Position numbers and translations under genes: made by a program. From Escherichia phage vB_EcoM_G5211, in sequence record MK327947.1: DNA of 64,000 nucleotides; one strand, given 5' to 3'. How positions within the stretch are numbered: position 1 is the first letter of the stretch; each line of letters starts with the position of its first letter. Below, in pieces: positions 19,495 through 41,505 of the stretch. The notes beneath the pieces were generated by a model, which saw nothing but the letters and a program-made list of their open reading frames with translations, did not search any database and had not been told where the DNA came from.

Positions 19495-21546
19495 TTACAT
19501 TTTAAATTTATCTGGCATTGCGTCTACAGATACCAGATCAGCGATAAGCTGACGTAGAGTTGCCTTATCTGCTTTCTTACGTTCGGTTTTAGCTTCGCTA
19601 ATGAAGCTGGAGAAAGACAGGTCAGAAGCAGGTTTAATAACACCTTCACGGATGAATGCATCACCGTCCGCGATCATCTCGCCAGATTCTTGTAATGCTG
19701 CCAGTTCATTTTTGTTCATAATATGTGCCTCAATGTAATAAGTTTCTTGTGAATCCGTCGATGCCGTAGCACGAGTTACCGTATCAAAGGATAACACAAC
19801 ACCGCGAGGAAGTAAAATCTCGCATTCTTTGTAAGCAAATGCTTTGTTACCTACTGGCAATACAGGGATGTTTTCCGCGCCAGCAATGGAGAAAGCAACA
19901 TTAGCGCCACCTTCACCGCGAGAGCCAGCCATAGAATCAACACCAGCAACGGCACTAGCCACGTTTGCATTCCAGCCGCCAAAAATGTTAGGTGCAAGGG
20001 AAGTGCTCACATAGTTTTTAAAGTAAAACGCTTTTTGCTTACGTGCAGTTTCCCACATTTGCGACCGGAAGTCCATACCACGATACAGAATAGTACCCGG
20101 ATCAAGTTTAACGCCATAGTTGGAGAAGGCATTATCCAGTGCATCGCACATCTTGACCAATTCTTCTGGATCTGCGATGCCTTCAAACTCTTCCAGCTTA
20201 CGGTCGGTTAGGAAGTTGTTCATATTGATGTATGCTGCATCGGCATATTCGCTCAACACAAAACCTTCCGCGCCCGGCAGATCAAGATCAATATCTGCCA
20301 TCATTTCACCCATGTTGCTAGCAATTGCTTCAAACATACCGGAAGCAACATTACGTAGGGCATCGGTTTTAATCTGGGTGATGTGACTACGCAGCATTTC
20401 AGCTTTTACATCTGCTGGCATAGACTGGTCTACTCGATCCATTGCCAGGGCGGTGATCTTGTTTTCGAATACTTCCTCGCTCATGATTTCTTTTAAGCGT
20501 TTGATTGATGCTGCGATAACTTCCGCAGACAATGGATCATATTGATCCTGAACTTTTACCAGTTCGCTTACTGCGTATTTTGCATCGGCTTCGCTTTCAA
20601 AAATAGTACGCATGAAACCATAGCGAGTGATAATATCACTTGTCCAGTCATTCAGAGAACGGGCGGTTGAACGTTCTAAGGCTTGACGATCAATCAGAGT
20701 ATTAAACTGTTTCTTAGGTTCGGCTTCGGTGATATCTTCTTCCGGTTTAAGATTAATTTTTTCTGGATGATTCACATAGTCGCTGTTATAGGTCGCTTGA
20801 GTTTTCAGCATTTCTTCTTTAGTCAAACGAGATTTAGCCGCTACGCGTTGTTCTGCTTCCGCGTTTCGTTCTTCTTCTGACACAAGACTAGCCGCATATG
20901 CCTCATCTTTAGTCAGAGATTCACCAGTAGCCTTAGATACCCAGCGATCACCTAAATCACTTTCTACTTTAGTGAACAAGGATTCATCAAGTTTAATCCC
21001 TTTAATCTTATCAATCGCCATCCCGCGACGCTTGACAACAACTAAAGCGATCTTTTTGCTGGTCATTACTTCCTGCTGGAATACTTCAAACTTCGGTGTA
21101 CGACGCACCAAACGCTCTATAACGCGCTTAACCAGTTCGGTCTTACCTTTCATGCGGGATACGTTAAAACGGAACATAACAGCGTCTAATTGCGCTTTAC
21201 GGGCTGTTTCCATAACCACATCAAAAGCACTTGACATAACTGCAATCGGGTTATCGCCTAGACCATTTTTAAGCTGTACAATACGACCGCTTTTGTTCAT
21301 TTCGCACAGTACAACATGTGCGGTCTTGTCACCCATACGAATGATTTTAGGTGTTTTGTTGGTGAAGTTACAAAGACGGACAATCACATCTTTATCGCGT
21401 GTCTGTACTGCAAAAAGCTGTTTAGGATTCTGCTTAGGCTTTAAGCACTGTACCGGAGCAATACTGCCAAAGTTTTCTTCCTCTTCCGTCAACAGCCATT
21501 TCTCGAAAGATTCAATCATTAGATCGTCGATTTCTAAGTTAAACAT
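19495..21546 (-). CDS. alt: Alt ADP-ribosyltransferase
   Basis: 683 aa (T4 Alt is ~682 aa); C-terminal ART motifs; AGAGGA RBS. Confidence 0.9.
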   Translation of the reverse strand: MFNLEIDDLMIESFEKWLLTEEEENFGSIAPVQCLKPKQNPKQLFAVQTRDKDVIVRLCNFTNKTPKIIRMGDKTAHVVLCEMNKSGRIVQLKNGLGDNPIAVMSSAFDVVMETARKAQLDAVMFRFNVSRMKGKTELVKRVIERLVRRTPKFEVFQQEVMTSKKIALVVVKRRGMAIDKIKGIKLDESLFTKVESDLGDRWVSKATGESLTKDEAYAASLVSEEERNAEAEQRVAAKSRLTKEEMLKTQATYNSDYVNHPEKINLKPEEDITEAEPKKQFNTLIDRQALERSTARSLNDWTSDIITRYGFMRTIFESEADAKYAVSELVKVQDQYDPLSAEVIAASIKRLKEIMSEEVFENKITALAMDRVDQSMPADVKAEMLRSHITQIKTDALRNVASGMFEAIASNMGEMMADIDLDLPGAEGFVLSEYADAAYINMNNFLTDRKLEEFEGIADPEELVKMCDALDNAFSNYGVKLDPGTILYRGMDFRSQMWETARKQKAFYFKNYVSTSLAPNIFGGWNANVASAVAGVDSMAGSRGEGGANVAFSIAGAENIPVLPVGNKAFAYKECEILLPRGVVLSFDTVTRATASTDSQETYYIEAHIMNKNELAALQESGEMIADGDAFIREGVIKPASDLSFSSFISEAKTERKKADKATLRQLIADLVSVDAMPDKFKM

Positions 21547-21579: not shown

Positions 21580-21607
21580 TATTTATGAAAAGGGGGCTTA
21601 ACGCCCC
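21580..21607 (-). terminator. hairpin GGGGC-guuaa-GCCCC with U-run (- strand)
   Basis: Sits between the stop of 21613..21825 and the alt RBS; same hairpin recurs at 25614. Confidence 0.5.
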
Positions 21608-21612: not shown

Positions 21613-21825
21613 TTATAATGCACCATCGAGCAATTGCTCTAAGGTGTATCCTGAATAGTCTTTTTCAATCAGGATATATTTTCCTACTCGTTTAATACAA
21701 CCACGCATTTCAACGTATTCTGCGTAGTTGATGGTACGAGTTGTTCCATCTTCCAGTAATGCAGTACCGATTTCGTTAATGCGGTCATAAGTTACGTCGG
21801 TAATGATGATTTCGATGTTAGCCAT
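21613..21825 (-). CDS. small early hypothetical protein (70 aa)
   Basis: AAGGAG RBS; preceded by a promoter/stem-loop cassette. Confidence 0.6.
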   Translation of the reverse strand: MANIEIIITDVTYDRINEIGTALLEDGTTRTINYAEYVEMRGCIKRVGKYILIEKDYSGYTLEQLLDGAL

Positions 21826-21893
21826 TTGATACTCCTTAGTAGTTCGTTTCGGTATGGGTGTATTATGATATACACCCTCTGTTATGTCAACAA
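21826..21893 (-). promoter_or_regulatory. early promoter plus stem-loop cassette (PeSL-like)
   Basis: On the - strand: A-tract, TTGACA, palindrome GGGTGTAT..ATACACCC over a CATAAT -10, conserved leader CAUACCGAAACGA, then GGAG RBS. Confidence 0.6.
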
Positions 21894-21896
21894 CTT

Positions 21897-22076
21897 TTAG
21901 AACATTTTTGAAATTAATTCTGCTTTGATTTCGCAGAGAACATCTAAAGATTTCTCGTCACCCGCTTTTGCTGCTTCTGCTTGCATTTTTGAAATGGCTT
22001 CAATGTCAGTGCAATTATAAGCCGCTTGAACTTTAGCGATTGCGATGATTGCCGATTCGATGGTTAAGTGTTTCAT
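21897..22076 (-). CDS. small early hypothetical protein (59 aa), not in the ORF track
   Basis: ATG directly follows a cassette leader; translation MKHLTIESAIIAIAKVQAAYNCTDIEAISKMQ... Confidence 0.5.
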   Translation of the reverse strand: MKHLTIESAIIAIAKVQAAYNCTDIEAISKMQAEAAKAGDEKSLDVLCEIKAELISKMF

Positions 22077-22138
22077 GTTTGATTCTCCTTTCGTTTCGGT
22101 ATGTGTGCATTATAGGGGATCTCCGACCCCCCTGTCAA
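22077..22138 (-). promoter_or_regulatory. early promoter plus stem-loop cassette (PeSL-like)
   Basis: TTGACA-18-TATAAT with GGGGATC..GACCCC stem in the spacer. Confidence 0.6.
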
Positions 22139-22145
22139 CAACTTT

Positions 22146-22664
22146 TTAGTTATTTTTTAATTGCTCATCTTGCAATAGGGCAATCACATGCTGGCGATGT
22201 TCTTCCGATTGAGGAACACCGAAAAAGTTTGTTTTGTAGAAATACTCTAATCGGTCTTCTCGTGTGCTCTCTTCCATCATGATCGCGGGTAGTCCGAGAT
22301 TTCGGAAACGTCGCTTTTCTGCTGGCGTAAAATCACTGTAATACAACATAGAATCATCATTACCAGCAATGCTAAACTCATCATTCATGAAGGAGAATAT
22401 TGCGTTTAAACGCTGTTTACCGTCCACGATTTCGATCTCATAGCGAGAGCCATCATCAATCTTAGCCATTGCGATAGCACCAACCGGAAAATCATTAATC
22501 AGGTTTTCGATAAACATACGTTTGTTTTCGGTGTCCCATACCAAAGGACGCTGATAATCTGGGTTCATGTTGATATAGCCATCTTCTAACCATGCATCAT
22601 AAACAGAGATGACAAAGTTTTTAGTATTGGTATAGTAACGGCGTTTAGGCGTTAAACGGTTCAT
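22146..22664 (-). CDS. DUF262 / ParB-like (DGQQR-type) domain protein
   Basis: PDYQRPLVWD ... IVDGKQRLNAI matches the DUF262 N-terminal signature; internal ATG abuts the stop of the upstream ORF. Confidence 0.7.
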   Translation of the reverse strand: MNRLTPKRRYYTNTKNFVISVYDAWLEDGYINMNPDYQRPLVWDTENKRMFIENLINDFPVGAIAMAKIDDGSRYEIEIVDGKQRLNAIFSFMNDEFSIAGNDDSMLYYSDFTPAEKRRFRNLGLPAIMMEESTREDRLEYFYKTNFFGVPQSEEHRQHVIALLQDEQLKNN

Positions 22665-22665
22665 G

Positions 22666-22995
22666 TTATAGTCTCCTGAATGGATCATCACGTAAATCAA
22701 TATCTTTTAAGAACTCATCCCATGAATGGCGGATATTGTTCTTAATTCTCCAGATAAGCGCAGGGATTGAACGCTCTCCCATCTGGAAGTAAGGATCATA
22801 TGATCCGTATGCCCAATATGCTACTACAATTCCACAGTCAGCGCAATAGTATTCTATTTCACTTGCTGGCGACCAAAGTCCATCAATATGATCAGTGATC
22901 TTGCTTTCGATGTTATGACTATGACAATCAGGGCAACGGATGCAATGACCTTGTTTATCGTAATTTGACGTTAGAGAATACTTAAACAATCTCAT
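22666..22995 (-). CDS. zinc-ribbon (CxxC..CxxC) protein
   Basis: CIRCPDC .. CADCG cysteine pairs; start overlaps the stop of the methyltransferase-like gene by 1 nt. Confidence 0.65.
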   Translation of the reverse strand: MRLFKYSLTSNYDKQGHCIRCPDCHSHNIESKITDHIDGLWSPASEIEYYCADCGIVVAYWAYGSYDPYFQMGERSIPALIWRIKNNIRHSWDEFLKDIDLRDDPFRRL

Positions 22996-23711
22996 TATAG
23001 ATCCTTATTGGCTTCAAATACTGCCTTTGCGAATCCTCGCGGGGTAAGTGACCTGATAGTCTTTGTTCTGGTTCCTTTCCCGCCTAGCTTAGAATGCTGT
23101 TTACTGTACCCTTTATTAATCTGCAACGGTTTCTTTTCTGGCATTATAAAGCCTTGTCCGGTCCATAAGCAAGTCTTTTTCGGGTACATATCACGGGCGG
23201 CAATATACTCAGGAAACGTAGGATGCTTATCATCTTCCGGCAAATAACCGCCATATTCCCACGGATGGAACATGTAATCAGGCTTACGCCACATACTAGA
23301 GATAACGCTTACAGGATTCTCTATCATGTAGGGAACTCCTAGCCATTCACCCAAATAAGCGGTTATTTTAGCTGTCCGTACATCATGAACTTGAATCAAT
23401 GGTCCTTGTTCTCGTTTCTTTCGTTCAAAGTGTGCAGCGCCACTAACAGCTAAATTGGTGCACGGTGGGAATGCAAAGATAATATCCGGTTTCCCCCATT
23501 CAAGGTCCATTGCTCTTTCCAGCCAGTTCAAATCAATCCAGGTGTTTACATAAGTAATGTTTGGATGTTCAAATCTGGTATTATACTTTTTGTATGTACC
23601 GTGGTCGGCGTCATCCGCATTAAAGCAGACTACCTTATGACCTGCTTTAGCCCATTCTAGCCCCATTATCCCCGATCCGTCAAAGTTGCAGAATATTAAT
23701 TTTTGTTTCAT
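22995..23711 (-). CDS. SAM-dependent C5-cytosine-methyltransferase-like protein (238 aa)
   Basis: FDGSGIMG (motif I-like), FPPCTNLAVSG (PC motif IV-like), MIENPVS (ENV-like), SLTPRGFAKAV; AGGGTGG RBS. Confidence 0.6.
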   Translation of the reverse strand: MKQKLIFCNFDGSGIMGLEWAKAGHKVVCFNADDADHGTYKKYNTRFEHPNITYVNTWIDLNWLERAMDLEWGKPDIIFAFPPCTNLAVSGAAHFERKKREQGPLIQVHDVRTAKITAYLGEWLGVPYMIENPVSVISSMWRKPDYMFHPWEYGGYLPEDDKHPTFPEYIAARDMYPKKTCLWTGQGFIMPEKKPLQINKGYSKQHSKLGGKGTRTKTIRSLTPRGFAKAVFEANKDL

Positions 23712-23949
23712 ATACCACCCTTTAACCCAGCACAGATTTTAGTCGGTTCTTTACCGTGCCACATTAAGTAAAGTCCGTTAATGCGACCTTGTTTTGTGTG
23801 TGATTCTTTTCTAATCTTCTTATAGTGTCGTGCTTCCTCAACTTATTGTTTAGAATACCAATCATAAAGGAAGAGGCACAAAGGCCAACCATTAGCGGCC
23901 TTAATGCAGTTATTAAGAAATTCCTTATTGCGTTTAATTAATTTTCTTT

Positions 23950-24201
23950 TCACGCTACCCCCATTGGTTTGATAGTAACAGAATCTAAAAGACCTTTGTT
24001 AGCCAGTTCGCGGCAAGTTTTCAGATCCGCAACTTCCCAGCCAGCCGCAATCAGGTTATCAATCAGGCTGTTAGCAACTTCTTCGCTCATGAAAGAGCAC
24101 TGTTTGCCGATGGTGTAGCGCACACGCTGTAATTTCAGTTTACGGAAGCCTTTAACGTTCAGGTCTTTAGCGATTTTCTTTGCGGTTTCGATGTTAGCCA
24201 T
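23950..24201 (-). CDS. small early hypothetical protein (83 aa)
   Basis: AGGAGAA RBS behind a cassette. Confidence 0.6.
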   Translation of the reverse strand: MANIETAKKIAKDLNVKGFRKLKLQRVRYTIGKQCSFMSEEVANSLIDNLIAAGWEVADLKTCRELANKGLLDSVTIKPMGVA

Positions 24202-24270
24202 TGTTTGATTCTCCTAAGTGGTATCTCGTCTTGATGGTTGTATTGTAGGGGAGTTATCCTCCCCTGTCAA
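24202..24270 (-). promoter_or_regulatory. early promoter plus stem-loop cassette (PeSL-like)
   Basis: TTGACA; stem GGGGAG-ttatc-CTCCCC in the spacer. Confidence 0.55.
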
Positions 24271-24284
24271 CACTTTTTATAAAA

Positions 24285-24452
24285 TTATTTGTTAATTTCT
24301 GGTGCGTTGCTAGGATAGTAACCTTCTTTAACTCCGAGGTATTTCGCAACCATCCCTACAATCTTCTGTGCTACTACAATGTCAAATTTCAGATAATCTT
24401 CGCCGTGGGTTTCAATGATATATGCTTCACATGCTGCTTTAGTCTCGAACAT
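24285..24452 (-). CDS. small early protein (55 aa), paralog A of 27551..27718
   Basis: MFETKAACEAYIIETHGEDYLKFDIVVAQKIVGMVAKYLGVKEGYYPSNAPEINK; nearly identical to the 27551 copy. Confidence 0.5.
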   Translation of the reverse strand: MFETKAACEAYIIETHGEDYLKFDIVVAQKIVGMVAKYLGVKEGYYPSNAPEINK

Positions 24453-24514
24453 TTTGATTCTCCTATTTCGTTTCGGTATGTGTGTAGTATAGGGGATCTC
24501 CCGATCCCCGTCAA
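24453..24514 (-). promoter_or_regulatory. early promoter plus stem-loop cassette (PeSL-like)
   Basis: TTGACG-17-TATACT with GGGGATC-tccc-GATCCCC palindrome in the spacer. Confidence 0.6.
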
Positions 24515-24528
24515 CAACTTTTTTAAAA

Positions 24529-24810
24529 TTATTCGTGATTAGTTTCGATATTGTGCATTTTGCACCAGTTCAGCCAATCGCCCAGATCTTTATAGTTGAT
24601 GCTTTTATCTGCTGCCATCGTTTTTGTCTTGATACCCATATGTGCGTTATGAGTAAGCATTTTTACAGTGAACTCAATTTTATCGCCTTTAGCTTTAACA
24701 TCAACCAGTTTGGTCCACTGGCTACCAGCGCCGCGAATGTTCATACCAACGATGTTTCCGATGTATGCTTCTTTGTTTTTCAGGATTTCGGTTGCTTTGA
24801 TGAATTTCAT
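24529..24810 (-). CDS. small early hypothetical protein (93 aa)
   Basis: ATG behind a cassette. Confidence 0.6.
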   Translation of the reverse strand: MKFIKATEILKNKEAYIGNIVGMNIRGAGSQWTKLVDVKAKGDKIEFTVKMLTHNAHMGIKTKTMAADKSINYKDLGDWLNWCKMHNIETNHE

Positions 24811-24872
24811 TTTTGATTCTCCAGTTCGTTTCGGTATGGGTGTATTATGCTATGTTCTTACTTTGGTGTCAA
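24811..24872 (-). promoter_or_regulatory. early promoter cassette (PeSL-like)
   Basis: TTGACA-17-CATAAT plus conserved leader. Confidence 0.55.
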
Positions 24873-24880
24873 CAACTTTT

Positions 24881-25150
24881 TTAGATATTTTCAGAAATAA
24901 ATTTTAAAACTTGACGTAAATGTTTCTCATCTTTGATAGTCGCCGGAAGTTCTTCTTTTACTTCCTGTGCAAGATAGATATTTCCGTTCCAAGTGAAAGA
25001 TCCGTCTTTGTTTACGCGATAGCTGAACATCCACTCGCAATCATTTTCGATTTCATATACACACAGAAGGGTGTAATCGTTAAAGCTATTGATTTCAAGG
25101 TCGAAGCCGTGACGTTTTGCAAAGTTGGTAGTGGTTTTAGTCAGTGCCAT
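24881..25150 (-). CDS. small early hypothetical protein (89 aa)
   Basis: ATG behind a cassette. Confidence 0.6.
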   Translation of the reverse strand: MALTKTTTNFAKRHGFDLEINSFNDYTLLCVYEIENDCEWMFSYRVNKDGSFTWNGNIYLAQEVKEELPATIKDEKHLRQVLKFISENI

Positions 25151-25219
25151 TGTTTGATTCTCCTAAGTGGTATCTCGTTTCGATGGGTGTATTATGCTAT
25201 AGGCTAGATCAGGTGTCAA
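25151..25219 (-). promoter_or_regulatory. early promoter cassette (PeSL-like)
   Basis: TTGACA-17-CATAAT plus conserved leader. Confidence 0.55.
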
Positions 25220-25243
25220 CAACTTTTTTAATTTTTTGGAAAT

Positions 25244-25269
25244 AAAAAAAGCCGACACTAAGGTCGGCT
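25244..25269 (-). terminator. intrinsic terminator (- strand)
   Basis: AGCCGAC-cuuagu-GUCGGCU followed by U7. Confidence 0.55.
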
Positions 25270-25276
25270 AATAAAA

Positions 25277-25585
25277 TCATTTAGACAAATAATCATTCTG
25301 TGCAATCCGGTCGGCGTATGCTGGTGTTATGTCAATCGCCAGCACTTTAACGCGTGCTTTCTTGCGACCTGTGTTTTCTCGTAACCAGTGCTCATGACCG
25401 TGAACATTTTTATACTGCGATGCTTCTTCGAAGGTACGGATCGGACCTGGATAATCTGCGTAAAGGATCTCTAGGTCTTCGGTGATGTAAAAATATACAT
25501 CATAATTACTGTTCTCTAGTTTAAGCAGAGACTTTCGGAACATTGGGAGATTTTCGCGGGTAAATTCAAAGATATTATCTTTCAT
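25277..25585 (-). CDS. small early protein (102 aa), member 1 of an H-x-H-W paralog family
   Basis: ..YFYITEDLEILYADY..HGHEHW..VKVLAIDI.. pattern shared with 26005, 26298 and 27016. Confidence 0.6.
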   Translation of the reverse strand: MKDNIFEFTRENLPMFRKSLLKLENSNYDVYFYITEDLEILYADYPGPIRTFEEASQYKNVHGHEHWLRENTGRKKARVKVLAIDITPAYADRIAQNDYLSK

Positions 25586-25607
25586 AGTATTATCCTCAAT
25601 AGTTGGA

Positions 25608-25630
25608 TGAAAAGGGGGCTTAACGCCCCC
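25608..25630 (-). terminator. hairpin GGGGGC-guuaa-GCCCCC with U-run (- strand)
   Basis: Between 25636..25923 and the RBS of 25277..25585. Confidence 0.5.
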
Positions 25631-25635
25631 ATATA

Positions 25636-25923
25636 TTAAAACAGACCTTCCTGTACACCGTAGTAGAGTTCATCGCTGATAATTTCATTAATGCGACGGT
25701 GTGCATATTCCTGATTTGCGAAGTTGTCAGCAAGTTCTACTTTAGTTTCGCCGTCATGAGTCCATTTAGTGATAACTTTACCATCTGCAAATTTGAAGTT
25801 GAACTCTTTAGCTACCGCATCGCGTACCAGACGTGCAAACTTATTGTTGCGGATTGCATTGTCGGTTTCGTGTGCAGCGTGAGCGAATTTGTTAACTTTC
25901 AGAGTGATAGTAATGTATGCCAT
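25636..25923 (-). CDS. small early hypothetical protein (95 aa)
   Basis: ATG behind a cassette. Confidence 0.6.
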   Translation of the reverse strand: MAYITITLKVNKFAHAAHETDNAIRNNKFARLVRDAVAKEFNFKFADGKVITKWTHDGETKVELADNFANQEYAHRRINEIISDELYYGVQEGLF

Positions 25924-25998
25924 AATTTGATTCTCCTAGTTAGAAAGTGTATCTCGTTTCGATGGGTGTATTATGCTATACACCCAACCTCATGTCAA
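25924..25998 (-). promoter_or_regulatory. early promoter plus stem-loop cassette (PeSL-like)
   Basis: TTGACA-17-CATAAT with GGGTGTAT..ATACACCC palindrome. Confidence 0.6.
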
Positions 25999-26004
25999 CA
26001 CTTT

Positions 26005-26283
26005 TTATAAAATAATTTTTTGATATTTTTCTATGATGTTCGTGTAATTCACATCAACCGCTAGCACCGTTGCTTCGAATCCACCGTTTAGCCAATGGCT
26101 ATGATCGTGATCGTGAAAGAAACCTAGACCAGTACGAAGACCTTCTTTATATTCGGCGCGTACATTTAGATCATCATCGATAAACAGATAAAACCATGAA
26201 TTTTTACTAGGATTGATGATACAACCTTTCAGATTCGGGAGAATATCACGACTAAGAATAAACTTATCACCTACTTTGAACAT
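26005..26283 (-). CDS. small early protein (92 aa), member 2 of the H-x-H-W paralog family
   Basis: ..FYLFIDDDLNVRAEY..HDHDHSHW..VLAVDV.. Confidence 0.6.
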   Translation of the reverse strand: MFKVGDKFILSRDILPNLKGCIINPSKNSWFYLFIDDDLNVRAEYKEGLRTGLGFFHDHDHSHWLNGGFEATVLAVDVNYTNIIEKYQKIIL

Positions 26284-26297
26284 AATATTTTCCTCAC

Positions 26298-26606
26298 TTA
26301 TAAAGTTTGACCGTTGTTTTTCGCATAATGCTTAATGCGTGCTTGATCTGCTTCCGCTGGTGATAGATTCCATGCAACCACTACAACTTCTGACGCATCG
26401 TCATCCGTTTCTGATACCCAATGGTTGTGATTCATACAGTTATTTGCTATCGAGTGAGCAAATGATTTCATCACTGGAGACGTATAATCATAGTAACGGA
26501 TTTTCAGATTTTCATCAACATACAAGTAGATCGTATAAGGTTTATATTCAGTAACCAGTAACAGACAGTTACGCAATTCTGGGAAAATCTTTTTAGTTAA
26601 TTTCAT
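26298..26606 (-). CDS. small early protein (103 aa from internal ATG), member 3 of the H-x-H-W family
   Basis: ..IYLYVDENLKIRYYDY..NHNHW..VVVVAW..; the ATG lies 1 nt from the stop of the upstream ORF. Confidence 0.6.
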   Translation of the reverse strand: MKLTKKIFPELRNCLLLVTEYKPYTIYLYVDENLKIRYYDYTSPVMKSFAHSIANNCMNHNHWVSETDDDASEVVVVAWNLSPAEADQARIKHYAKNNGQTL

Positions 26607-26607
26607 T

Positions 26608-26817
26608 TTATAATCCTCGGTCGCGGCTATAGTACACGGTACGCCATACAATTTCATGTTTCGTGTCGCTCCAGCACACGATCTCATTTACTCTTAAATC
26701 TTTGTTATCAACAAAAGATGAACATTGTGACGCTTCTTTCATCATTTTATCTGCTGTTTTCTCATCAAATACAGCACAGATTTCTTTATACACTCGATAA
26801 TCTTTAAACTTGCTCAT
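26608..26817 (-). CDS. small early protein (~70 aa), MSKFKDY paralog 1
   Basis: MSKFKDYRVYKEICAVFDEKTADKMMKEASQCSSF..; tandem paralog of 26820..27029. Confidence 0.55.
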   Translation of the reverse strand: MSKFKDYRVYKEICAVFDEKTADKMMKEASQCSSFVDNKDLRVNEIVCWSDTKHEIVWRTVYYSRDRGL

Positions 26818-26819
26818 AA

Positions 26820-27029
26820 TTAACACCAATCAAGAGTTTTTGAGAAAACCTCTATCCATTGTTGAGTATATGCGGTTTCTTTCCATGATACAATACCAGT
26901 AGAATAATGGTTTTTGTTTCCAGAAAATGACGGGCATTTTGATGCATCTTCCATCATCTTTTCGGCGAACTCTGGTTCGTATACTCGCAAGATCTGTTGA
27001 TATGCTTTATAATCTTTAAATTTGCTCAT
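26820..27029 (-). CDS. small early protein (~70 aa), MSKFKDY paralog 2
   Basis: MSKFKDYKAYQQILRVYEPEFAEKMMEDASKCPSF.. Confidence 0.55.
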   Translation of the reverse strand: MSKFKDYKAYQQILRVYEPEFAEKMMEDASKCPSFSGNKNHYSTGIVSWKETAYTQQWIEVFSKTLDWC

Positions 27030-27294
27030 AATCATTCACTACCTTATCAGCTTCTTTTGTTGTTTTTACATCAACTGCGATAACCCGTAAAGGTTCGTCA
27101 TGGTTCCACCAATGATCGTGAATATCGGCTTGTGATTTATCACCAAAGGAATCACGAATATCATTTTTACTTTTATAGCTAATGTGACCGTCATAGTCAA
27201 CATAAAGGTAATTATCGAAAATCGGCGTTTTTAAGATCATGCCGAAAAATCTTTCTTTGTGTGTCTTATCCAGCGTTGCAGTAATTCGCATCAT
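27016..27294 (-). CDS. small early protein (92 aa), member 4 of the H-x-H-W paralog family
   Basis: ..YLYVDYDGHISY..HDHWW..VIAVDV.. Confidence 0.6.
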   Translation of the reverse strand: MMRITATLDKTHKERFFGMILKTPIFDNYLYVDYDGHISYKSKNDIRDSFGDKSQADIHDHWWNHDEPLRVIAVDVKTTKEADKVVNDYEQI

Positions 27295-27306
27295 AATATA
27301 TTCCTC

Positions 27307-27486
27307 TTAGAAAGGGATGGTCATTTCTTGAGCTTGTACATTCTCGTTAGGATTAAACTTCATCCAACCAATATTGTCTACCAGCATATGCACATTTTTA
27401 TCATATCCTACGTGAGTAGTCAACACTAAATGTGATTTACCTTCAACGATGATTTCCATGTACTTCTGAACTTCGATAGCTTTCAT
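27307..27486 (-). CDS. small early hypothetical protein (59 aa), not in the ORF track
   Basis: ATG directly after a cassette leader; translation MKAIEVQKYMEIIVEGKSHLVLTTHVGYDKNVHMLVDNIGWMKFNPNENVQAQEMTIPF. Confidence 0.5.
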   Translation of the reverse strand: MKAIEVQKYMEIIVEGKSHLVLTTHVGYDKNVHMLVDNIGWMKFNPNENVQAQEMTIPF

Positions 27487-27547
27487 TTTGATTCTCCGTT
27501 TGTTGTCTTGATGGGAGTATCTTACTACTCCCTTTAATCATTGTCAA
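27487..27547 (-). promoter_or_regulatory. early promoter plus stem-loop cassette (PeSL-like)
   Basis: TTGACA; stem GGGAGTA-tcttac-TACTCCC. Confidence 0.55.
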
Positions 27548-27550
27548 CTA

Positions 27551-27718
27551 TTATTTGTTAATTTCTGGTGCGTTGCTTGGATAGTAACCTTCTTTAACAC
27601 CCAGATATTTTGCAACCATTCCGGTGATCTTCTGTGCTACTACGATATCGAATTTCAGGTAGTCTTCACCGTGTTTTGCTACAATGTATGCTTCGCATTC
27701 TGCTTTAGTCTGGAACAT
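27551..27718 (-). CDS. small early protein (55 aa), paralog B of 24285..24452
   Basis: MFQTKAECEAYIVAKHGEDYLKFDIVVAQKITGMVAKYLGVKEGYYPSNAPEINK. Confidence 0.5.
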   Translation of the reverse strand: MFQTKAECEAYIVAKHGEDYLKFDIVVAQKITGMVAKYLGVKEGYYPSNAPEINK

Positions 27719-27782
27719 TTTTGATTCTCCTATATCTCGTTGGTATGTGTGTATTATAGGGGATCTCCCGATCCCCTGTCAA
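27719..27782 (-). promoter_or_regulatory. early promoter plus stem-loop cassette (PeSL-like)
   Basis: TTGACA-18-TATAAT with GGGGATC-tccc-GATCCCC palindrome. Confidence 0.6.
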
Positions 27783-27795
27783 CAACTTTTTTGAA

Positions 27796-28272
27796 TTATT
27801 TTTCTTGATGCTCGCGCTCGTACTTTTCGAAATAAAATTCTACTGGCTGGTCATGAATTGACAGCAAGCCAAAGCGTTTAGCCGCTCGCAATCCCATATT
27901 GCGCTGAATGTACTTCTGGAAGTTCTCGCGTATACACTTACGCCAGTATTCTAAGCCCATACAGCTTTTATAAAGATTGCATTGTACACACGCCGGATTC
28001 ATGTTATCAAGTATATCATGTTCCGGTTTATGCATTCCTACAACCTTATACTTCCACGACCCATCATCATTACGGGCAATTCGTCCATTTTCATCATAGA
28101 CTACCTTTGAGCGTCGCAATACTGGTTTGATATGGTCTGCGTGCCAGCGATCCCCTAGTTCCTCGCCACAATAGGCACAACGCCCACCGTATTTCATTTT
28201 CAGGATCTGGCGTTGCTCTTTCTTTGACAATTTTTTAGGTTTAGGGGCTTTCGCCCCTTCATTATCACACAT
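27796..28272 (-). CDS. HNH endonuclease (free-standing, abutting the DNA ligase gene)
   Basis: CAYCGEEL..WHADHIKP..NMNPACVQCN matches the HNH Cys/His pattern; start overlaps the 3' end of gene 30. Confidence 0.75.
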   Translation of the reverse strand: MCDNEGAKAPKPKKLSKKEQRQILKMKYGGRCAYCGEELGDRWHADHIKPVLRRSKVVYDENGRIARNDDGSWKYKVVGMHKPEHDILDNMNPACVQCNLYKSCMGLEYWRKCIRENFQKYIQRNMGLRAAKRFGLLSIHDQPVEFYFEKYEREHQEK

Positions 28273-29761
28273 CGAATACCTCTTTTACTGTATTTGCCGT
28301 GGTCTTGTCGTAGCGAATACGTTTGATGATTGGGAGAAATAAAGAGAACTCCGGTTCATCTTCTTTACGTGATTTGCTGCGGATATACCCGTTGCATGTC
28401 ATCTCAATGACTTTTCCAATCAGGTTATGACGGTCAGCCCATAACATTTCTCGGTCGAGTTCATTTCGACGATCGAACGGAATTACACGTTCGATACCAT
28501 CATCACCTTTTTCGGTTGTGGTGTCGGTTAATCCCGATCCGGTGTTAGTCATCATTCGTCCGCACGCACTACGGACAGTAAAACCGCCTACCTTATTGGG
28601 GTCTTTACTATGCGGATATACATCAACAATTTCCGCGTCGAAGTCAATAACTTCTTTAAATTTAACCTGATCTTTACTGCGACGATCTTCAAATACACCA
28701 TGTAAATTTTTAAGGATAATACCTTCTAAGCCCATGTTTACATAGCGATGATATACTTCGCGAGCTTCATCGATATTGTTAACTACAGTGTTTTCGATTA
28801 TCTGAACACGAGGATCGTTAAGTTCTTCAACAATCTGTTTTAGTTCTTCGAATCGATCTTTATATTGCTTCGTTGCTTTCTCGTTTCCGTAATACACATC
28901 ACGGTCGATAACATCCCAGACAGTGTAAACAATACATTGGGCTTCTTCTTTTGGAATAGTTCCTTTCAGTGATTTGTTGAGGATACCATTTCCGGTCTGA
29001 CGATCTGCAACAACGGATTCTTTCACTGCTTCCGCTACTGGCGTTAATGGCATTTCATCTTCTTCAAATATCCATGACAGAGTACCATCATAAACGCTCT
29101 CAACGAAGTTCTGCGCTGGTGTTTGCGAAAGGGTAGGCATATATACCAATTCGCCATCTAGAACAATTCCACGGCCTCGTAGACGCTCTAAAACCACAAA
29201 CAAATCATCAAGCCCTTGATAGGTATTACCTGAACGGGTATAGATTGCTAATGTTTCCCCGTCAATATCAGCCATCCCACGAGCGCCATCGCTTTTAAGT
29301 TGTGCATACGCCGGATATTTGATATTGGCAATGGTCTTATCAGAACATGACGATGCAAGGTGGCACGGCTGCTGAGGAATCAGTTTCTTCCATACCTTGT
29401 TTGCGGTGGTAGCGGAACAACCGCATTCTAGGTCTCGATTCAGGACCATCATTGCAACTTTAGCATCGTCTTCCGACAAGCAAGTCAGAGTATCGGTAAC
29501 TAGCTGTAATGCTGCATTACCAGTTATTTGACGCGTGGCAAGTTTATTTTTAAAGACCTGTAATGCGCCAGATAAAGACAATACAGATGAATAACGCGAC
29601 GGTTTATCGTATTTCTTTACGCCAAACGTAACCTGTTTGCAATATGCCAGATAAAAGCATTCTTTCAGCGTTTCATTGCTTGCAGATTCTTTCAGGATCT
29701 TTTCTTTCAGCGATGTTTTGTCTGTTGCTGCAAGCTGATTAATGATATTAAGAATTGACAT
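28265..29761 (-). CDS. 30: ATP-dependent DNA ligase gp30
   Basis: From the internal ATG (MSILNIINQ..); KSDGAR adenylation motif region and overall parallel to T4 ligase; the track ORF starts at GTG 29767. Confidence 0.9.
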   Translation of the reverse strand: MSILNIINQLAATDKTSLKEKILKESASNETLKECFYLAYCKQVTFGVKKYDKPSRYSSVLSLSGALQVFKNKLATRQITGNAALQLVTDTLTCLSEDDAKVAMMVLNRDLECGCSATTANKVWKKLIPQQPCHLASSCSDKTIANIKYPAYAQLKSDGARGMADIDGETLAIYTRSGNTYQGLDDLFVVLERLRGRGIVLDGELVYMPTLSQTPAQNFVESVYDGTLSWIFEEDEMPLTPVAEAVKESVVADRQTGNGILNKSLKGTIPKEEAQCIVYTVWDVIDRDVYYGNEKATKQYKDRFEELKQIVEELNDPRVQIIENTVVNNIDEAREVYHRYVNMGLEGIILKNLHGVFEDRRSKDQVKFKEVIDFDAEIVDVYPHSKDPNKVGGFTVRSACGRMMTNTGSGLTDTTTEKGDDGIERVIPFDRRNELDREMLWADRHNLIGKVIEMTCNGYIRSKSRKEDEPEFSLFLPIIKRIRYDKTTANTVKEVFDV

Positions 29762-30227
29762 TTTCACCTCGTTTTGTTAAACGTTCACGAATATCATTGA
29801 GGATACTACAAAATTCCGATTCAGTCAATATAGTCTTTAACGGATCAGTTCCACCTATGCTATGACGTAATTTCTTATTTCCGGTAGCGAGTAATGCTTT
29901 ACAAAATTCTGGGTTATTCCGTGCCATCGTAACAAATGCCAGATGTACCAGTCTGTAATAATGCTCACTCATTCGATGAATAGGGCGACCCTGAAAATAT
30001 AACATGTGATTCTCAATCTTTTCAGTTCTTCCGGTTCTTTTTGCTTTGCCACCGTGCATCAAAAAGATTTCTCTTTGTCTCTGAGGGTTCTTAAATCTTA
30101 GCCCCTGTAAAAATCCTTCTGTGCTGTTAATATCGCAACCAAATAGACGGAATGGTCTTTTATTGAAATTGCTCAATTCACCCGATGGATAAGGTCCACC
30201 CGCATAGATATCAATTTCAGAAGTCAT
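29748..30227 (-). CDS. NADAR/YbiA-like (DUF1768) protein
   Basis: PSGELSNFNKRPF..EGFLQGLRF and ALLATGNKKL resemble the NADAR family signature. Confidence 0.6.
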   Translation of the reverse strand: MTSEIDIYAGGPYPSGELSNFNKRPFRLFGCDINSTEGFLQGLRFKNPQRQREIFLMHGGKAKRTGRTEKIENHMLYFQGRPIHRMSEHYYRLVHLAFVTMARNNPEFCKALLATGNKKLRHSIGGTDPLKTILTESEFCSILNDIRERLTKRGENVNS

Positions 30228-30381
30228 TGAAACTAATCTCGCTAATCAGAGAGAACGGATCATAATCGTCATTAGGAATATCGATAGTAATCGAATGAGG
30301 ATTTACCCATACACCAAACTGGCCTTCTTCGGTGAATACTTCGGTATGGATTTCGTGGATGTTTACATTCATAGTTTTCAT
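30217..30381 (-). CDS. small hypothetical protein (55 aa from internal ATG)
   Basis: ATG with AAGGAA RBS; the track ORF starts at an upstream TTG. Confidence 0.45.
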   Translation of the reverse strand: MKTMNVNIHEIHTEVFTEEGQFGVWVNPHSITIDIPNDDYDPFSLISEISFNDF

Positions 30382-35177: not shown

Positions 35178-35576
35178 TTAACTTTCCAGAATATCGCGAG
35201 CTTCGTTACGCTCCTTGATGATTTTCAGGACAAATTCCAGTTTTTCTTTGTTTAGTGTTCCGTTTTCCATTGCTTCTTTGACGGTAAACACTCCGCCACC
35301 TTGCCCGTATACAGTGACAGTGATTTCACCTAACATCGTGGTGTGAAAACCGCCAATTTTCGGTGATTCGAAAGAAACAATTACCTCGCGGACAGTATTA
35401 CCGTCGTTGATTTCTGAGAGGGTAATGTCGTTTTTGTAGGCGGTTGCTTTAACCATACGGATCAGCATAGTCTGATCTGGGGAGATGGTCATTTTGTCCA
35501 TTGCATGTTGCAATGCAGCGTAACCGAAAACTTTAACGAAGTCCAGAACGTCTTTGCGAGTTTGAAATTTAATCAT
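35178..35576 (-). CDS. early hypothetical protein (132 aa)
   Basis: ATG behind a cassette. Confidence 0.6.
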   Translation of the reverse strand: MIKFQTRKDVLDFVKVFGYAALQHAMDKMTISPDQTMLIRMVKATAYKNDITLSEINDGNTVREVIVSFESPKIGGFHTTMLGEITVTVYGQGGGVFTVKEAMENGTLNKEKLEFVLKIIKERNEARDILES

Positions 35577-35638
35577 CTTGATACTCCTTAGTTGTTTTGG
35601 TATGGGAGTATCTTACTACTCCCGTGATATGCTGTCAA
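35577..35638 (-). promoter_or_regulatory. early promoter plus stem-loop cassette (PeSL-like)
   Basis: TTGACA; stem GGGAGTA-tcttac-TACTCCC. Confidence 0.55.
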
Positions 35639-35646
35639 CTGCTTTT

Positions 35647-35796
35647 TTATGCAACCGCAAACATCAACATTTGAACATTCTTGGCTGTCTGGCTTTCAAA
35701 GTTCTGACATTCTTTGATAATGTCCTCTACTTTCTCGCCGGAGATCTCCGCGTAAGTTTCGATTGCCATTTTCAGTACCGCGTCAAAGTTGTTCAT
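35647..35796 (-). CDS. small early hypothetical protein (49 aa), not in the ORF track
   Basis: ATG after a cassette leader; translation MNNFDAVLKMAIETYAEISGEKVEDIIKECQNFESQTAKNVQMLMFAVA. Confidence 0.45.
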   Translation of the reverse strand: MNNFDAVLKMAIETYAEISGEKVEDIIKECQNFESQTAKNVQMLMFAVA

Positions 35797-35863
35797 TTGA
35801 TTCTCCTTAAAGTGTATTTCGTTTCGATGGGGGTATATTACTACCCCCGTTTCATGCTGTCAA
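35797..35863 (-). promoter_or_regulatory. early promoter plus stem-loop cassette (PeSL-like)
   Basis: TTGACA; stem GGGGGTA-tattac-TACCCCC. Confidence 0.55.
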
Positions 35864-36082
35864 CTACTTTTTAATGACAAGTTCGAATTTTGCTACCTTG
35901 CGTCCTCGTTTATTGAAAGCAACCCACGGACGGTTTTCAATGTAGAACAATTCTTCGCCAATAATGAATACTGGCTGATTGTAAAGGCGACCCATCAGGT
36001 CACGCTGGCGAATGGTAGTAGATTCGTATACTTCGCCTACTACAAAGTGCTTGCTGATAGAGTCGGTGCAAGTAAATTTCAT
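35864..36082 (-). CDS. small early hypothetical protein (72 aa)
   Basis: ATG behind a cassette. Confidence 0.55.
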   Translation of the reverse strand: MKFTCTDSISKHFVVGEVYESTTIRQRDLMGRLYNQPVFIIGEELFYIENRPWVAFNKRGRKVAKFELVIKK

Positions 36083-36146
36083 TTTGATTCTCCTTTGTTT
36101 CGTTTCGATGGGGGTATATTACTACCCCCCCGTTATTCAGTGTCAA
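36083..36146 (-). promoter_or_regulatory. early promoter plus stem-loop cassette (PeSL-like)
   Basis: TTGACA; stem GGGGGTA-tattac-TACCCCC. Confidence 0.55.
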
Positions 36147-36153
36147 CTACTTT

Positions 36154-36372
36154 TTACTTGTTGTATTCATTCCACCATTGGGTTAGCTTATCAATTATTT
36201 TTGTGTTTCTATCCAACTTCTCCCACCGTTTTCTAGGGTTTATCAACCGGAATAGGTAAGGTGTACTTGTTAAGTGAACTCGGTCAATGTAGTGATTGAT
36301 GTACTGCTTTTCGATTCTAAGTTTCATCTTTTTACGATGAAAATATGCAATGACTTGTTCTTCTGTTTCCAT
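36154..36372 (-). CDS. small early hypothetical protein (72 aa)
   Basis: ATG behind a cassette. Confidence 0.55.
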   Translation of the reverse strand: METEEQVIAYFHRKKMKLRIEKQYINHYIDRVHLTSTPYLFRLINPRKRWEKLDRNTKIIDKLTQWWNEYNK

Positions 36373-36425
36373 ATGTTCCTCCGTTTCGATGTGCGTATTA
36401 TGCTATGGCAAGATCAGATTGTCAA
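36373..36425 (-). promoter_or_regulatory. early promoter cassette (PeSL-like)
   Basis: TTGACA-17-CATAAT plus conserved leader. Confidence 0.55.
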
Positions 36426-36435
36426 CACCCAATAA

Positions 36436-38135: not shown

Positions 38136-38675
38136 CTATTCTCCATCAATTTTGTTTATATTGTAGCCCATGTTGCCTTTTTCTATTTCTCTCAACGCAA
38201 CTGAATTAAACGCTCTTGCCGCATCTTGTTCGCTATCAAATCTCCCTATATGAACACTCTTTCCTTGTATATTAATATGAACTAGCCATCTATTTGTGTA
38301 CTTACACCAACTTACCCCGTTATATTTTGATGATGCACCTTTAAATTTAGTTCTGTTTCTATTATTGACAGAATAATCAGTACCTCGTAAATTTTCTATA
38401 TGATTGTTCAGCTTGTTTCGGTCGATGTGATCTATAACTTTAGGCTTATGCCCGTGAAACATATGATAAATCACATGATGTATTAACTTCTTTCTATTGT
38501 CTACTGTTAGTTGAAGATATCCCCCATTATGTGGACTTCCAACCTCATCACCAACTTTAACTTTATTGCTTGTTGAAACCTTTCTGAAAAGTTTACCATC
38601 TTCGTATTTAAATAGATAATGATACCTTTCGTAAAGTATTCGGTCCTCTTCCGTATAATGTATTACCTCATACAT
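38136..38675 (-). CDS. HNH homing endonuclease with AP2-like DNA-binding domain (mobE-like position between nrdA and nrdB)
   Basis: HNH motif ..IDHIDRNKLNNHIENLR..; AP2-like SSKYNGVSW..KSVHIGRFDSEQDAARAF. Confidence 0.75.
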   Translation of the reverse strand: MYEVIHYTEEDRILYERYHYLFKYEDGKLFRKVSTSNKVKVGDEVGSPHNGGYLQLTVDNRKKLIHHVIYHMFHGHKPKVIDHIDRNKLNNHIENLRGTDYSVNNRNRTKFKGASSKYNGVSWCKYTNRWLVHINIQGKSVHIGRFDSEQDAARAFNSVALREIEKGNMGYNINKIDGE

Positions 38676-39193: not shown

Positions 39194-39253
39194 AATAAAA
39201 TCCTCACTTGTTTTTGATGGTTGTATTATAGCGGGGATTTCTCCCCGCGTCAA
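39194..39253 (-). promoter_or_regulatory. early promoter plus stem-loop cassette (PeSL-like)
   Basis: TTGACG-17-TATAAT with GCGGGGA-tttc-TCCCCGC palindrome. Confidence 0.6.
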
Positions 39254-39261
39254 CACTTATT

Positions 39262-41505
39262 TTACAGCTTGCAAGATGAGCACTCGCTAGCGTCTTCCGT
39301 ACCATCTGCACCGTCGCGAACGTTCGCATAATACAGGGTTTTCAGACCGTAATATTGAGCAAACAACATATCATCTAATACATCAGCAATATCGACTTTA
39401 CCAGTCTTATAAGTGCTTGGATCGTAGGATGTGTTGGAACTAATCGCCTGATCTACAAACTTCTGCATGATCGCTGCCAGTGTCAGATAAGGCTTGTTAC
39501 CTTTCTTGATCAGTGTCCAAAGCAGGTCAATAACATCAGCATTATTCTCTACGTTCGGAATAACCTGATTAAATTGCCCTTCTTTCGATCCTTTAACCGA
39601 TACAATACCGCGAGGCGGTTCAATACCGTTTGTGCTGTTAGATACCTGAGAAGACGACTCACAAGGCATCAGCGCCGACAGTGTACTGTTACGAATGCCA
39701 TATTTTTTCAGGTCTTCGCGCAGTTCTTCCCAATCCATCTCATACACCGGATCAACCAGTTCATCTACTGTCTTTTTGTACCAGTCGATAGGAAGTTCAC
39801 CGCGACCATAGCGTGTTTCGTGCATCAGTTCGCAAGCACCCTTCTCTTTAGCCAGTCGCACACTAGCCTTAATCAGAGCATATTGCAAGCGTTCAAACGT
39901 TTTATGCGTAAACTCGTTAGCGTCTTCATATGTGAAGAAATTATCTGCTAGATATGATGCAAAGTTAGTAACACCAACACCCAGAGAGCGACGTTTTTTG
40001 GCTGTCAGAGCTTGTTCTACAGGATAATCCTGATAATCTAACAGGTTGTCAAGTGCACGCACCATAACCATAGCAATGCGTTCTACTTCTTCCATATTTT
40101 CGATATCGAAATTACCTAAAACATATGCTGCCAAAGTACATAGGCTAATTTCTGAATCATCACGCCCCATCGGTTTTGTTGGCAGAGCAATTTCACAACA
40201 CAAGTTAGATTGTTTAATCGGTGCTACATTACGAATAAACGCCCCGTGATTGTTCATGTTGTCTGTGAACGTTGGGTAGATTCGACCAGTGTTAAAACGT
40301 TCAATTGCCACCGCTAAAAACAGGTCTTCGGCTTTAACACGAGTTTTACGAACACTCGGATCTTTTTCCAGTTTTTCGTAAAGCTGGCGGAAACCTTCCT
40401 CATCTCGGAAGTATAGATCCCACAACAAGCCACCCGCAACATCTGGACTAAACAGAGTAATGTAATCCCGTTTAAGGAATCGCTCTACCATCAGGTTATT
40501 AATCTGTACGCCGTAGTCAAGATGGCGAATGCGGTTATCTTCCACGCCCTTATTGTTCTTTAACACAATCAGACTTTCAAACTCTAAATGCCACATTGGG
40601 TAATAGAGAGTCGCCGCCCCGCCACGAATGCCGCCTTGTGAGCATGACTTAACGGCAGTCTGAAAATGTTTCCAGAATGGGATAACGCCAGTATGACGAA
40701 CTTCACCATGCCCGATCTTAGATCCTTCCGCGCGAATCATGCCAGCGTTGATACCGATACCAGCACGCTTGCTAATATACTTGATGATTGCATTTGCTGT
40801 TTCGTTGATGCCCTGCAATGAGTCATCACTTTCAATCACCACACACGAACTAAATTGGCGTGTTGGGGTACGCACACCTGCCATAATCGGAGTAGGCAGA
40901 GAGATTTGCTTATTCGCAACAGCATTATAAAAATCAATCACATGTTCAAGTCGATTTTCTGTCTCTTCTTGATGCAAGCACATACCGATCAGCATATACG
41001 CAAATTGCGGTGTTTCGATGATTTTCTTAGTGCTGCGATCCTGAACAAGATATTTCTCTTTTAACTGCATCGCACCAGCATAGGTCATTTTAAAATCAAG
41101 TTTATGGTCGATGAATTTCTCCAGATATTCCACTTCTTCACGGGAATACTTTTGCAGAATTTCGCGATCATATTTTCCGGTTGCAATATTACGCTCAATA
41201 TGGCTGTAAAAATCAATCGGTTGGAATTGACCGTATACTGATTTGCGAAGCGCGAACATTGCAAGGTTACTTGCTACATATTGATAATCGGGCGTTTCTA
41301 CCGTGATGTTATCTGCGGCGACCTTAATCAATACTTTCTGGATATCATTGGTAGACATACCTTCTGTCAGAAGTGGTTCAACCATATCAAACAATTCATA
41401 TGGATCAACGTTATGACCTTCGGCTGCCGCTTCCAGAATTTTCATTACTTTTTCTTTTTCAAACGGAACAGTCAGACCGGAAGACTTAACAACATTTTTA
41501 ATCAT
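39262..41505 (-). CDS. nrdA: ribonucleotide reductase large subunit
   Basis: 747 aa; ATP-cone N-terminus; catalytic-site motifs (..NLCCEI.., ..CESSSQV..); C-terminal CSSCKL. Confidence 0.9.
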   Translation of the reverse strand: MIKNVVKSSGLTVPFEKEKVMKILEAAAEGHNVDPYELFDMVEPLLTEGMSTNDIQKVLIKVAADNITVETPDYQYVASNLAMFALRKSVYGQFQPIDFYSHIERNIATGKYDREILQKYSREEVEYLEKFIDHKLDFKMTYAGAMQLKEKYLVQDRSTKKIIETPQFAYMLIGMCLHQEETENRLEHVIDFYNAVANKQISLPTPIMAGVRTPTRQFSSCVVIESDDSLQGINETANAIIKYISKRAGIGINAGMIRAEGSKIGHGEVRHTGVIPFWKHFQTAVKSCSQGGIRGGAATLYYPMWHLEFESLIVLKNNKGVEDNRIRHLDYGVQINNLMVERFLKRDYITLFSPDVAGGLLWDLYFRDEEGFRQLYEKLEKDPSVRKTRVKAEDLFLAVAIERFNTGRIYPTFTDNMNNHGAFIRNVAPIKQSNLCCEIALPTKPMGRDDSEISLCTLAAYVLGNFDIENMEEVERIAMVMVRALDNLLDYQDYPVEQALTAKKRRSLGVGVTNFASYLADNFFTYEDANEFTHKTFERLQYALIKASVRLAKEKGACELMHETRYGRGELPIDWYKKTVDELVDPVYEMDWEELREDLKKYGIRNSTLSALMPCESSSQVSNSTNGIEPPRGIVSVKGSKEGQFNQVIPNVENNADVIDLLWTLIKKGNKPYLTLAAIMQKFVDQAISSNTSYDPSTYKTGKVDIADVLDDMLFAQYYGLKTLYYANVRDGADGTEDASECSSCKL

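Follow-up and report, generated by a model that had tools for sequence, protein, structure and literature searches.

The closest described counterparts of the elements considered here are the promoter-early stem-loops (PeSLs) of the T4-type phages RB49 and Phi1. They were defined in the hyperplastic regions of these genomes as repeated motifs whose 3' end carries a Shine-Dalgarno (SD) sequence and a start codon (Arbiol et al. 2010, PMC2839356). There are 51-52 copies per genome, mostly ahead of ORFans, with five described hairpin positions, and one cluster, HPR3, holds 'eight PeSLs in an ~5-kb area' (PMC2839356). Here we analyse a block of small open reading frames (ORFs) at positions 21826-27782 of a 64,000-nt stretch of the genome of Escherichia phage vB_EcoM_G5211 (MK327947.1; the whole stretch is called the window), in which repeated promoter cassettes lie directly ahead of ORFs. 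We are highly confident that these cassettes are PeSLs of the genus Krischvirus, orthologous to those of RB49 and Phi1. The block is the HPR3 cluster of Arbiol et al. (2010), the type locus of this already known feature.

For orthologous copies, published work has demonstrated promoter activity, terminator activity and the formation of mini-circles. Promoter activity was tested for PeSL193/192 and PeSL206/205, with ~13,000 Miller units from the wild-type PeSL206/205 clone, and the stem-loop of PeSL211/210 cut read-through as strongly as rrnB T1 (PMC2839356). Mini-circles of ORFan192 and ORFan210 were obtained by inverse PCR; their sequenced crossovers lie inside PeSLs, in the AT-rich region, in the loop, or between the -10 box and the SD (PMC2839356). 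The early-promoter consensus predicted for RB49 fits the 5' ends mapped for its early transcripts (Nolan et al. 2006, PMC1524935). Thus, for this phage group, transcription in effect starts downstream of the predicted -10 elements, the point on which the initial annotation had let its reading depend. The PeSL concept has been extended to other T4-like lineages (Comeau et al. 2014, PMC4122927). The PeSL-like motifs of T4/PST and KVP40/nt-1 (PMC4122927) resemble the window cassettes in concept, as an early promoter plus stem-loop bordering variable genes. The early promoters of T4 likewise combine an A-rich, UP-like tract with a sigma-70-type promoter driving small early ORFs, but their -35 sequence is GTTTAC, as opposed to TTGACA in the window cassettes. 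PeSLs are a published explanation for the shuffling of accessory genes in T4-type phages with regulation left intact; the window finds them again at the type locus, and nothing new follows from this for the field.

The block matched 63 phage records, 52 of them at 95-99% identity and essentially all Krischvirus, and a 24-kb query around it, which matched 66 records, gave the same picture. The window belongs to a Krischvirus, an RB49-like T4-type ("pseudo-T-even") coliphage, and is 96-98% identical to many GenBank records. The block is collinear with ORF185-205 of RB49 and with Phi1 at ~97% identity (alignment and tblastn against the RefSeq annotations), and collinear megablast matches to both phages run through the cassettes at 95-98% identity. 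The locus, with alt on one side, ORF185-205 in the middle and the HNH and ligase genes on the other, is the same in all three phages; both these flanks and the PeSL assignment had been proposed correctly in the initial annotation. The cassettes also share the parts of the published PeSLs (AT-rich tract, sigma-70 promoter, stem-loop in the spacer or over the -10 box, SD and ATG), and are likewise associated with ORFan indels. The window differs in being a gene-content variant. Lacking from the block, relative to RB49, are ORF192, ORF195-196.1 and ORF206-211, and the hybrid PeSL between the HNH gene and ORF205 is found in neither RB49 nor Phi1.

Each cassette consists, in order, of an A-rich tract, TTGACA, a spacer of 17-18 nt, a -10 box, a short leader (usually GGAGAATCAAA) and the ATG. 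The consensus ahead of TTGACA is AAAAAATTTTAAAAAAGTTG, an AT-rich sequence inside which upstream stop codons fall, and the A-rich tract directly upstream of the -35 box ends in AAAAAGTTG. The TATAAT-like hexamer is followed by a sequence of the type ACACCCAT(A)CCGAAACGA, then by GGAG, AATCAAA and the ATG. The repeat length of ~60-70 bp given at first fits the distance from the -35 box to the ATG (60-75 nt), and is too short for the conserved unit including the A-tract (83-95 nt). TTGAC[AG] is present in all 19 complete copies, the nine block copies each score 10-12 of 12 as sigma-70 promoters, and GGAG or GAGG stands 6-9 nt ahead of an ORF-start ATG in every copy. The leader CAUACCGAAACGA, reported as conserved, occurs unchanged in four of the block's nine copies; the others carry the variants CAUCGAAACGAGAUAC, CAUCAAGAC... 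or CAUACCAACGAGA. From about +1 to the ATG the leaders span 26-40 nt and are predicted to be essentially unstructured (0 to -2.2 kcal/mol). No Rfam family matched anywhere in the window at gathering thresholds; thus no described RNA family includes the conserved leader. The PeSL papers contain no discussion of this leader or of the conserved SD.

A generic promoter scan returned a block total that was not enriched over shuffles (27 vs 21.4 ± 5.4). Among the 12 best sigma-70 matches in the block, seven score 11-12 of 12, and only the top-scoring sites are cassettes; a profile search was therefore used instead. The profile hidden Markov model (nhmmer), built from the nine block copies and searched against the window, recovered all nine at E = 1e-12 to 6e-20 and found eleven further copies outside the block (E = 1e-13 to 7e-3), where the initial annotation had listed additional cassettes. 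All 20 lie on the minus strand, are co-oriented with the downstream ORF and end at its ATG. The motif GGAG[AT]ATCA has 15 occurrences in the window, all of them on the minus strand and within a cassette, against a chance expectation that we estimate at about one. Given the profile recovery and the confinement of this motif, the repeat is real, far beyond chance. Copies concentrate in the ORF185-205, ORF225-228 and ORF263-267 clusters, and the downstream ORFs fall in function-unknown PHROGs. The cassettes are less pervasive than was claimed. In place of more than 20 small ORFs, nearly every one with a cassette, the block holds 18 (19 counting ORF185), and a cassette precedes nine of these; ORF187-189.1, ORF197 and ORF199-203 are without one. 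Two multi-gene runs, ORF190-189.1-189-188-187 and ORF204-199, stand behind single cassettes.

For each of the 19 complete copies, the 38 nt that begin at the -35 box were folded and compared with shuffles. A strong hairpin is present in 14 copies (-12 to -16 kcal/mol, z = -2.2 to -6.6), among them seven of the nine in the block. The palindrome, described at first as lying in the spacer, does so in four block copies (27782, 24514, 24270 and 22138); in three others it overlaps the -10 box (27547, 25998 and 21890). The arms vary yet remain complementary (GGGAGTA/TACTCCC, GGGGGTA/TACCCCC, GGGTGTAT/ATACACCC, GGGGATC/GATCCCC and GCGGGGA/TCCCCGC), which argues that the structure itself is maintained.

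We propose that each PeSL would serve as a regulatory unit of 85-95 bp directly ahead of an accessory ORF or a short ORF run. The A-rich, UP-like tract and the near-consensus -35 and -10 boxes would recruit the host sigma-70 RNA polymerase right after infection. The G/C-clamped hairpin would form in transcripts arriving from upstream and attenuate or terminate them, so that each module may be insulated from its neighbours, and the unstructured leader of 26-40 nt, ending in GGAGAAUCAAA-AUG, would give strong translation initiation. The ~50-90 bp common to copies that flank unrelated ORFs would provide portable homology for the phage recombination system. Exchange between one PeSL and another could then delete, insert or swap ORF modules and leave a functional hybrid cassette behind.

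Comparison of the window with RB49, Phi1, Makalu_003, FL37 and G2494 identified three large indels in the block, and all three have breakpoints in, or at most 30 nt from, a PeSL. The first is the presence or absence of ORF192, with its breakpoint at 24529-24533; the RB49 ORF would be inserted at the 5' edge of the ORF191 PeSL, and the window is Phi1-like, with a single PeSL. The second involves ORF195-196.1, which in RB49 are flanked by two copies of a 97-nt unit; the single window copy, at the ORF194 PeSL, is at 25172-25268. The third removes ORF206-211, with the breakpoint at 27721-27812. This interval reads 205-206-207-208-209-210-211-HNH in RB49, 205 through 210 and then HNH in Phi1, and 205 through 209 and then HNH in ELT3 and Makalu_003; in the window ORF205 directly adjoins HNH. 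Aligned with its relatives, the cassette at this junction has the 5' flank and A-tract of the Phi1 PeSL212/210 type and the leader and SD of the PeSL206/205 type, with a core of ~50 nt shared between the halves. On this alignment it is a natural PeSL chimera, precisely as PeSL x PeSL exchange would produce.

A 441-nt query spanning the junction was contiguous in one other record of 50,697, that of phage phiS (PP449093.1; compared with window positions 27700-27830). The hybrid PeSL of phiS keeps the 210-type leader up to the ORF205 ATG. Its crossover lies downstream of the leader, between the SD and the coding sequence, and that of the window lies in the promoter core. Thus, the same deletion appears to have arisen independently in the two phages. 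The variable position of the crossovers favours homologous exchange over site-specific recombination. A modestly useful addition is that the ORF206-210 segment has been removed by two natural hybrid PeSLs independently of each other. The possibility that ELT3, ELT4 and FL04, in which most of the 24-kb query is covered, share the ORF205-HNH junction was rejected: ELT3 retains ORF206-209.

Another pair of cassettes has the makings of such an exchange. ORF191 (24285-24452) and ORF205 (27551-27718) encode proteins with 89% amino-acid identity (172 nt at 85%), and their PeSLs are ~80% identical, 3.3 kb apart and in direct orientation. Given this similarity, the pair is a likely substrate for a large deletion or a mini-circle.

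Several points weigh against the PeSL explanation. There are only three indel sites, and the enrichment of breakpoints at PeSLs, estimated as (9/19)^3 or about 0.1, is weak if insertions are tolerated only between genes. Thus the junction sequences, rather than breakpoint enrichment, carry the argument for shuffling. Folding gave no hairpin in the two remaining block copies (25219 and 24872), and five of the 19 lack one overall (these two and 36425, 44487 and 44104); the hairpin-less copies are plain early promoters with the conserved leader. Where hairpins occur they have no following U-tracts, so terminator activity cannot be revealed by sequence, and it has been measured for only one orthologous element. 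The early timing and the activity of each copy in the window are what we infer.

Ordinary strong early promoters with separate terminators, made alike by convergence and with no role in recombination, would account for the consensus-like promoter boxes, for the five copies of 19 that lack a hairpin, and for the separate U-tract terminators at 25250-25269, 25614-25630 and 21593-21607. We nevertheless consider this explanation improbable. The similarity reaches positions with no known promoter or ribosome-binding-site constraint, namely AAAAAGTTG upstream, ACACCCAT(A)CCGAAACGA in the leader and AATCAAA after the SD. The indel junctions and two different chimeric PeSLs map within the shared sequence, and mini-circles with PeSL crossovers have been sequenced (PMC2839356).

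It is more doubtful still that the cassettes are sites of a site-specific recombinase, comparable to integron attC sites, with the hairpin recognised and the ORFs as gene cassettes. Crossover points differ among the window, phiS and the published mini-circles, the position and sequence of the hairpin differ between copies, and some recombinogenic copies have no hairpin. No integrase-like protein was identified among the block ORFs in Pfam and PHROGs scans. We set these observations against the hairpin-containing repeats that flank single small ORFs, the reported circular molecules of an ORF plus one repeat, the description of RB49 ORF211 as a homologue of an integron ORF (PMC2839356), and the wording 'homologous or site-specific', left open by Comeau et al. 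2014 (PMC4122927). Spread of a small non-autonomous transposable element, similar to miniature inverted-repeat transposable elements or repetitive extragenic palindromes, would explain many dispersed 85-95 bp copies with an internal palindrome, but has a negligible chance of being correct, as all 20 copies are oriented with the downstream gene and end 6-9 nt past the SD at the ATG, have no terminal inverted repeats or target-site duplications, and have orthologues that keep their positions in dozens of genomes.

The PeSL block invites comparison with the 30.1-30.9 cluster of T4, which the initial annotation correctly placed on the other side of the ligase gene. The T4 order is 54, alt.-3 ... 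alt, alt.1, 30, 30.1-30.9, rIII, 31; alt.1 is alone between alt and gene 30, and 30.1-30.9 are upstream of gene 30. The two loci are alike as runs of small early ORFs adjoining the ligase gene. They differ in the side of ligase that they occupy and have no detectable sequence similarity: in tblastn of the 19 block proteins against T4 119000-135000 (the alt.1/30.1-30.9/rIII segment) all E-values exceeded 0.1, whereas the controls, ligase and 30.3, matched the same segment at 1e-113 and 3e-23. Matches to Pfam families of the T4 30.x proteins were also lacking among the block proteins. We therefore reject a relocated 30.1-30.9 cluster, since only ligase and 30.3 match the T4 segment, and with it the earlier suggestion that the block was repositioned relative to T4. 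The sole shared gene, 30.3, is still upstream of ligase in the window, in a T4-like position. These comparisons mark the block as a hyperplastic region specific to this lineage, made up of different ORFans and inserted between ligase/HNH and alt.

The conserved end of the leader may have a further role. RegB/S1 targets are single-stranded 11-nt sites between the genes of early mRNAs, at Shine-Dalgarno sequences of the GGAG type, and have the consensus GGAGRAYARAA (Durand et al. 2006, PMC1702504); RB49 encodes a divergent but active RegB (review, PMC3014915). The cassette sequence GGAGAAUCAAA, present in 13 cassettes, matches 10 of the 11 positions of this consensus; two more cassettes have GGAGUAUCAA instead. 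At position 8 the putative site has a C in place of the strongly preferred A. The predicted cassette leaders are single-stranded, as RegB requires. Tentatively, and with more doubt than confidence, we suggest that the GGAGAAUCAAA-AUG end could also be a built-in RegB/S1 site and, separately, that specific PeSL pairs could be recurrent recombination hot-spots; they look like hot-spots because the ORF206-210 deletion occurred at least twice with different crossovers. If this is true, the ~90 bp PeSL would carry four functions (promoter, insulator against upstream transcription, strong translation start and programmed early shut-off), any ORF acquired through PeSL recombination would come under the complete early on/off programme automatically, and the RegB/S1 resemblance would extend the functional description of the element.

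Table 1. Block genes, bordering genes, PeSLs and terminators in the window (hairpin energies in kcal/mol).
Feature	Position	Strand	Remarks
alt, RNA polymerase ADP-ribosyltransferase	19495-21546	-	downstream border of block
ORF185	21613-21825	-	downstream of block; its cassette opens the block
PeSL before ORF185	21819..21911	-	GGGTGTAT-ATCATA-ATACACCC over -10 box; -12.1, z = -6.1
18 small ORFs	21897..27718	-	homologues of RB49/Phi1 ORF186-191, 193, 194, 197-205
PeSL before ORF186	22070..22158	-	spacer hairpin, -12.4
PeSL before ORF190 (run ORF190-189.1-189-188-187)	24200..24290	-	spacer hairpin GGGGAGGATAACTCCCC, -13.5, z = -5.8
PeSL before ORF191	24449..24534	-	spacer hairpin GGGGATCGGGAGATCCCC, -13.7
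PeSL before ORF193	24807..24892	-	without hairpin (dG 0.0)
PeSL before ORF194	25149..25238	-	promoter, leader and SD conserved; without hairpin (dG -0.2)
Intrinsic terminator after ORF197	25250-25269	-	AGCCGAC..GTCGGCT then T7; annotated as terminator in relatives
Terminator-like hairpin after ORF198	25614-25630	-	GGGGGCGTTAAGCCCCC then TTTT
PeSL before ORF198	25923..26017	-	GGGTGTAT-AGCATA-ATACACCC over -10 box (CATAAT), -13.5
PeSL before ORF204 (first of run ORF204-199)	27483..27567	-	GGGAGTA-GTAAGA-TACTCCC over -10 box (TAAGAT); -12.2, z = -4.6
PeSL between HNH (ORF212) and ORF205	27715..27801	-	nhmmer E = 8e-19; A-tract, TTGACA, spacer hairpin GGGGATCGGGAGATCCCC (-14.8, z = -5.0), TATAAT, leader, GGAGAATCAAAA, ATG at 27718
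HNH endonuclease (ORF212)	27796-28272	-	upstream border of block
DNA ligase gp30	28265-29767	-	upstream border of block
gp30.3 homologue	29754-30233	-	Pfam Phage_30_3, E = 1e-38; upstream of ligase
Four PeSLs	35576-35649, 35789-35875, 36080-36156, 36382-36429	-	before small ORFs equivalent to RB49 ORF225-228
PeSL downstream of nrdA	39203-39265	-	spacer hairpin GCGGGGAGAAATCCCCGC, -14.9, z = -6.5; ATG at 39193
Two weaker PeSL-like promoters	44055-44109, 44433-44506	-	hairpin-less; flank 109-aa ORF
Four PeSLs, ORF263-267 hyperplastic region	62958-63024, 63171-63253, 63457-63534, 63955 to window end	-

All genes of the block are on the minus strand. Pfam and PHROGs scans covered its 19 proteins and identified neither T4 30.x homologues nor a recombinase among them. 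The ORFs belong to function-unknown PHROGs, save ORF189 (a DNA methyltransferase PHROG) and ORF187 (a GmrSD_N domain); ORF188 has a weak zinc ribbon in the Pfam scan. Paralogue sets (191/205, 201/202 and 197/199/200/203) make local duplication within the block evident from sequence comparison. ORF187 encodes 172 aa, with little beyond the GmrSD_N (DUF262) domain (Pfam E = 5e-20), and is co-transcribed with ORF188, the possible zinc-ribbon gene, and ORF189 (phrog_757, without a Pfam match) at 22146-23711 (minus strand). The three genes may form a DNA-modification or anti-restriction module. In the same run, ORF189.1 (23708-23953, minus strand) has an in-frame TAA at 23843-23845, where Phi1, RB49 and ELT3 have TCA (Ser37). 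It is truncated in the window, by either a nonsense mutation or a sequencing error.

The terminator after ORF197 precedes the ORF194 PeSL. ORF197 itself (25277-25585) is located between two intrinsic terminators, without a recognisable promoter of its own. An exact 23-nt repeat (minus strand GGGGCGTTAAGCCCCCTTTTCAT) is present at 21585-21607, after ORF185, and at 25607-25629, after ORF198, and gives a terminator-like hairpin in both places.

Outside the block, the 109-aa ORF (44101-44430, minus strand) between the two PeSL-like promoters, whose -35 boxes are at 44487 and 44104, stands where RB49 has its 1.46-kb ORF240 'endonuclease', upstream of gene 32, and this is a module replacement. A 179-aa ORF at 38136-38675 (minus strand) combines an HNH-like motif (HIDRNKLNNHIENL) with an AP2-like C-terminal region (YNGVSW...GRFDSEQDAARAF). 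RB49 and Phi1 lack the 553-bp segment, between nrdB and the ORF231 homologue, that this ORF fills. The ORF has no PeSL at its borders and is probably a free-standing homing endonuclease insertion. The distal long-tail-fibre/adhesin region (55415-58911) is strongly diverged from RB49, with patches at 74-79% identity vs 92-98% in the flanks, the pattern expected for host-range variation.

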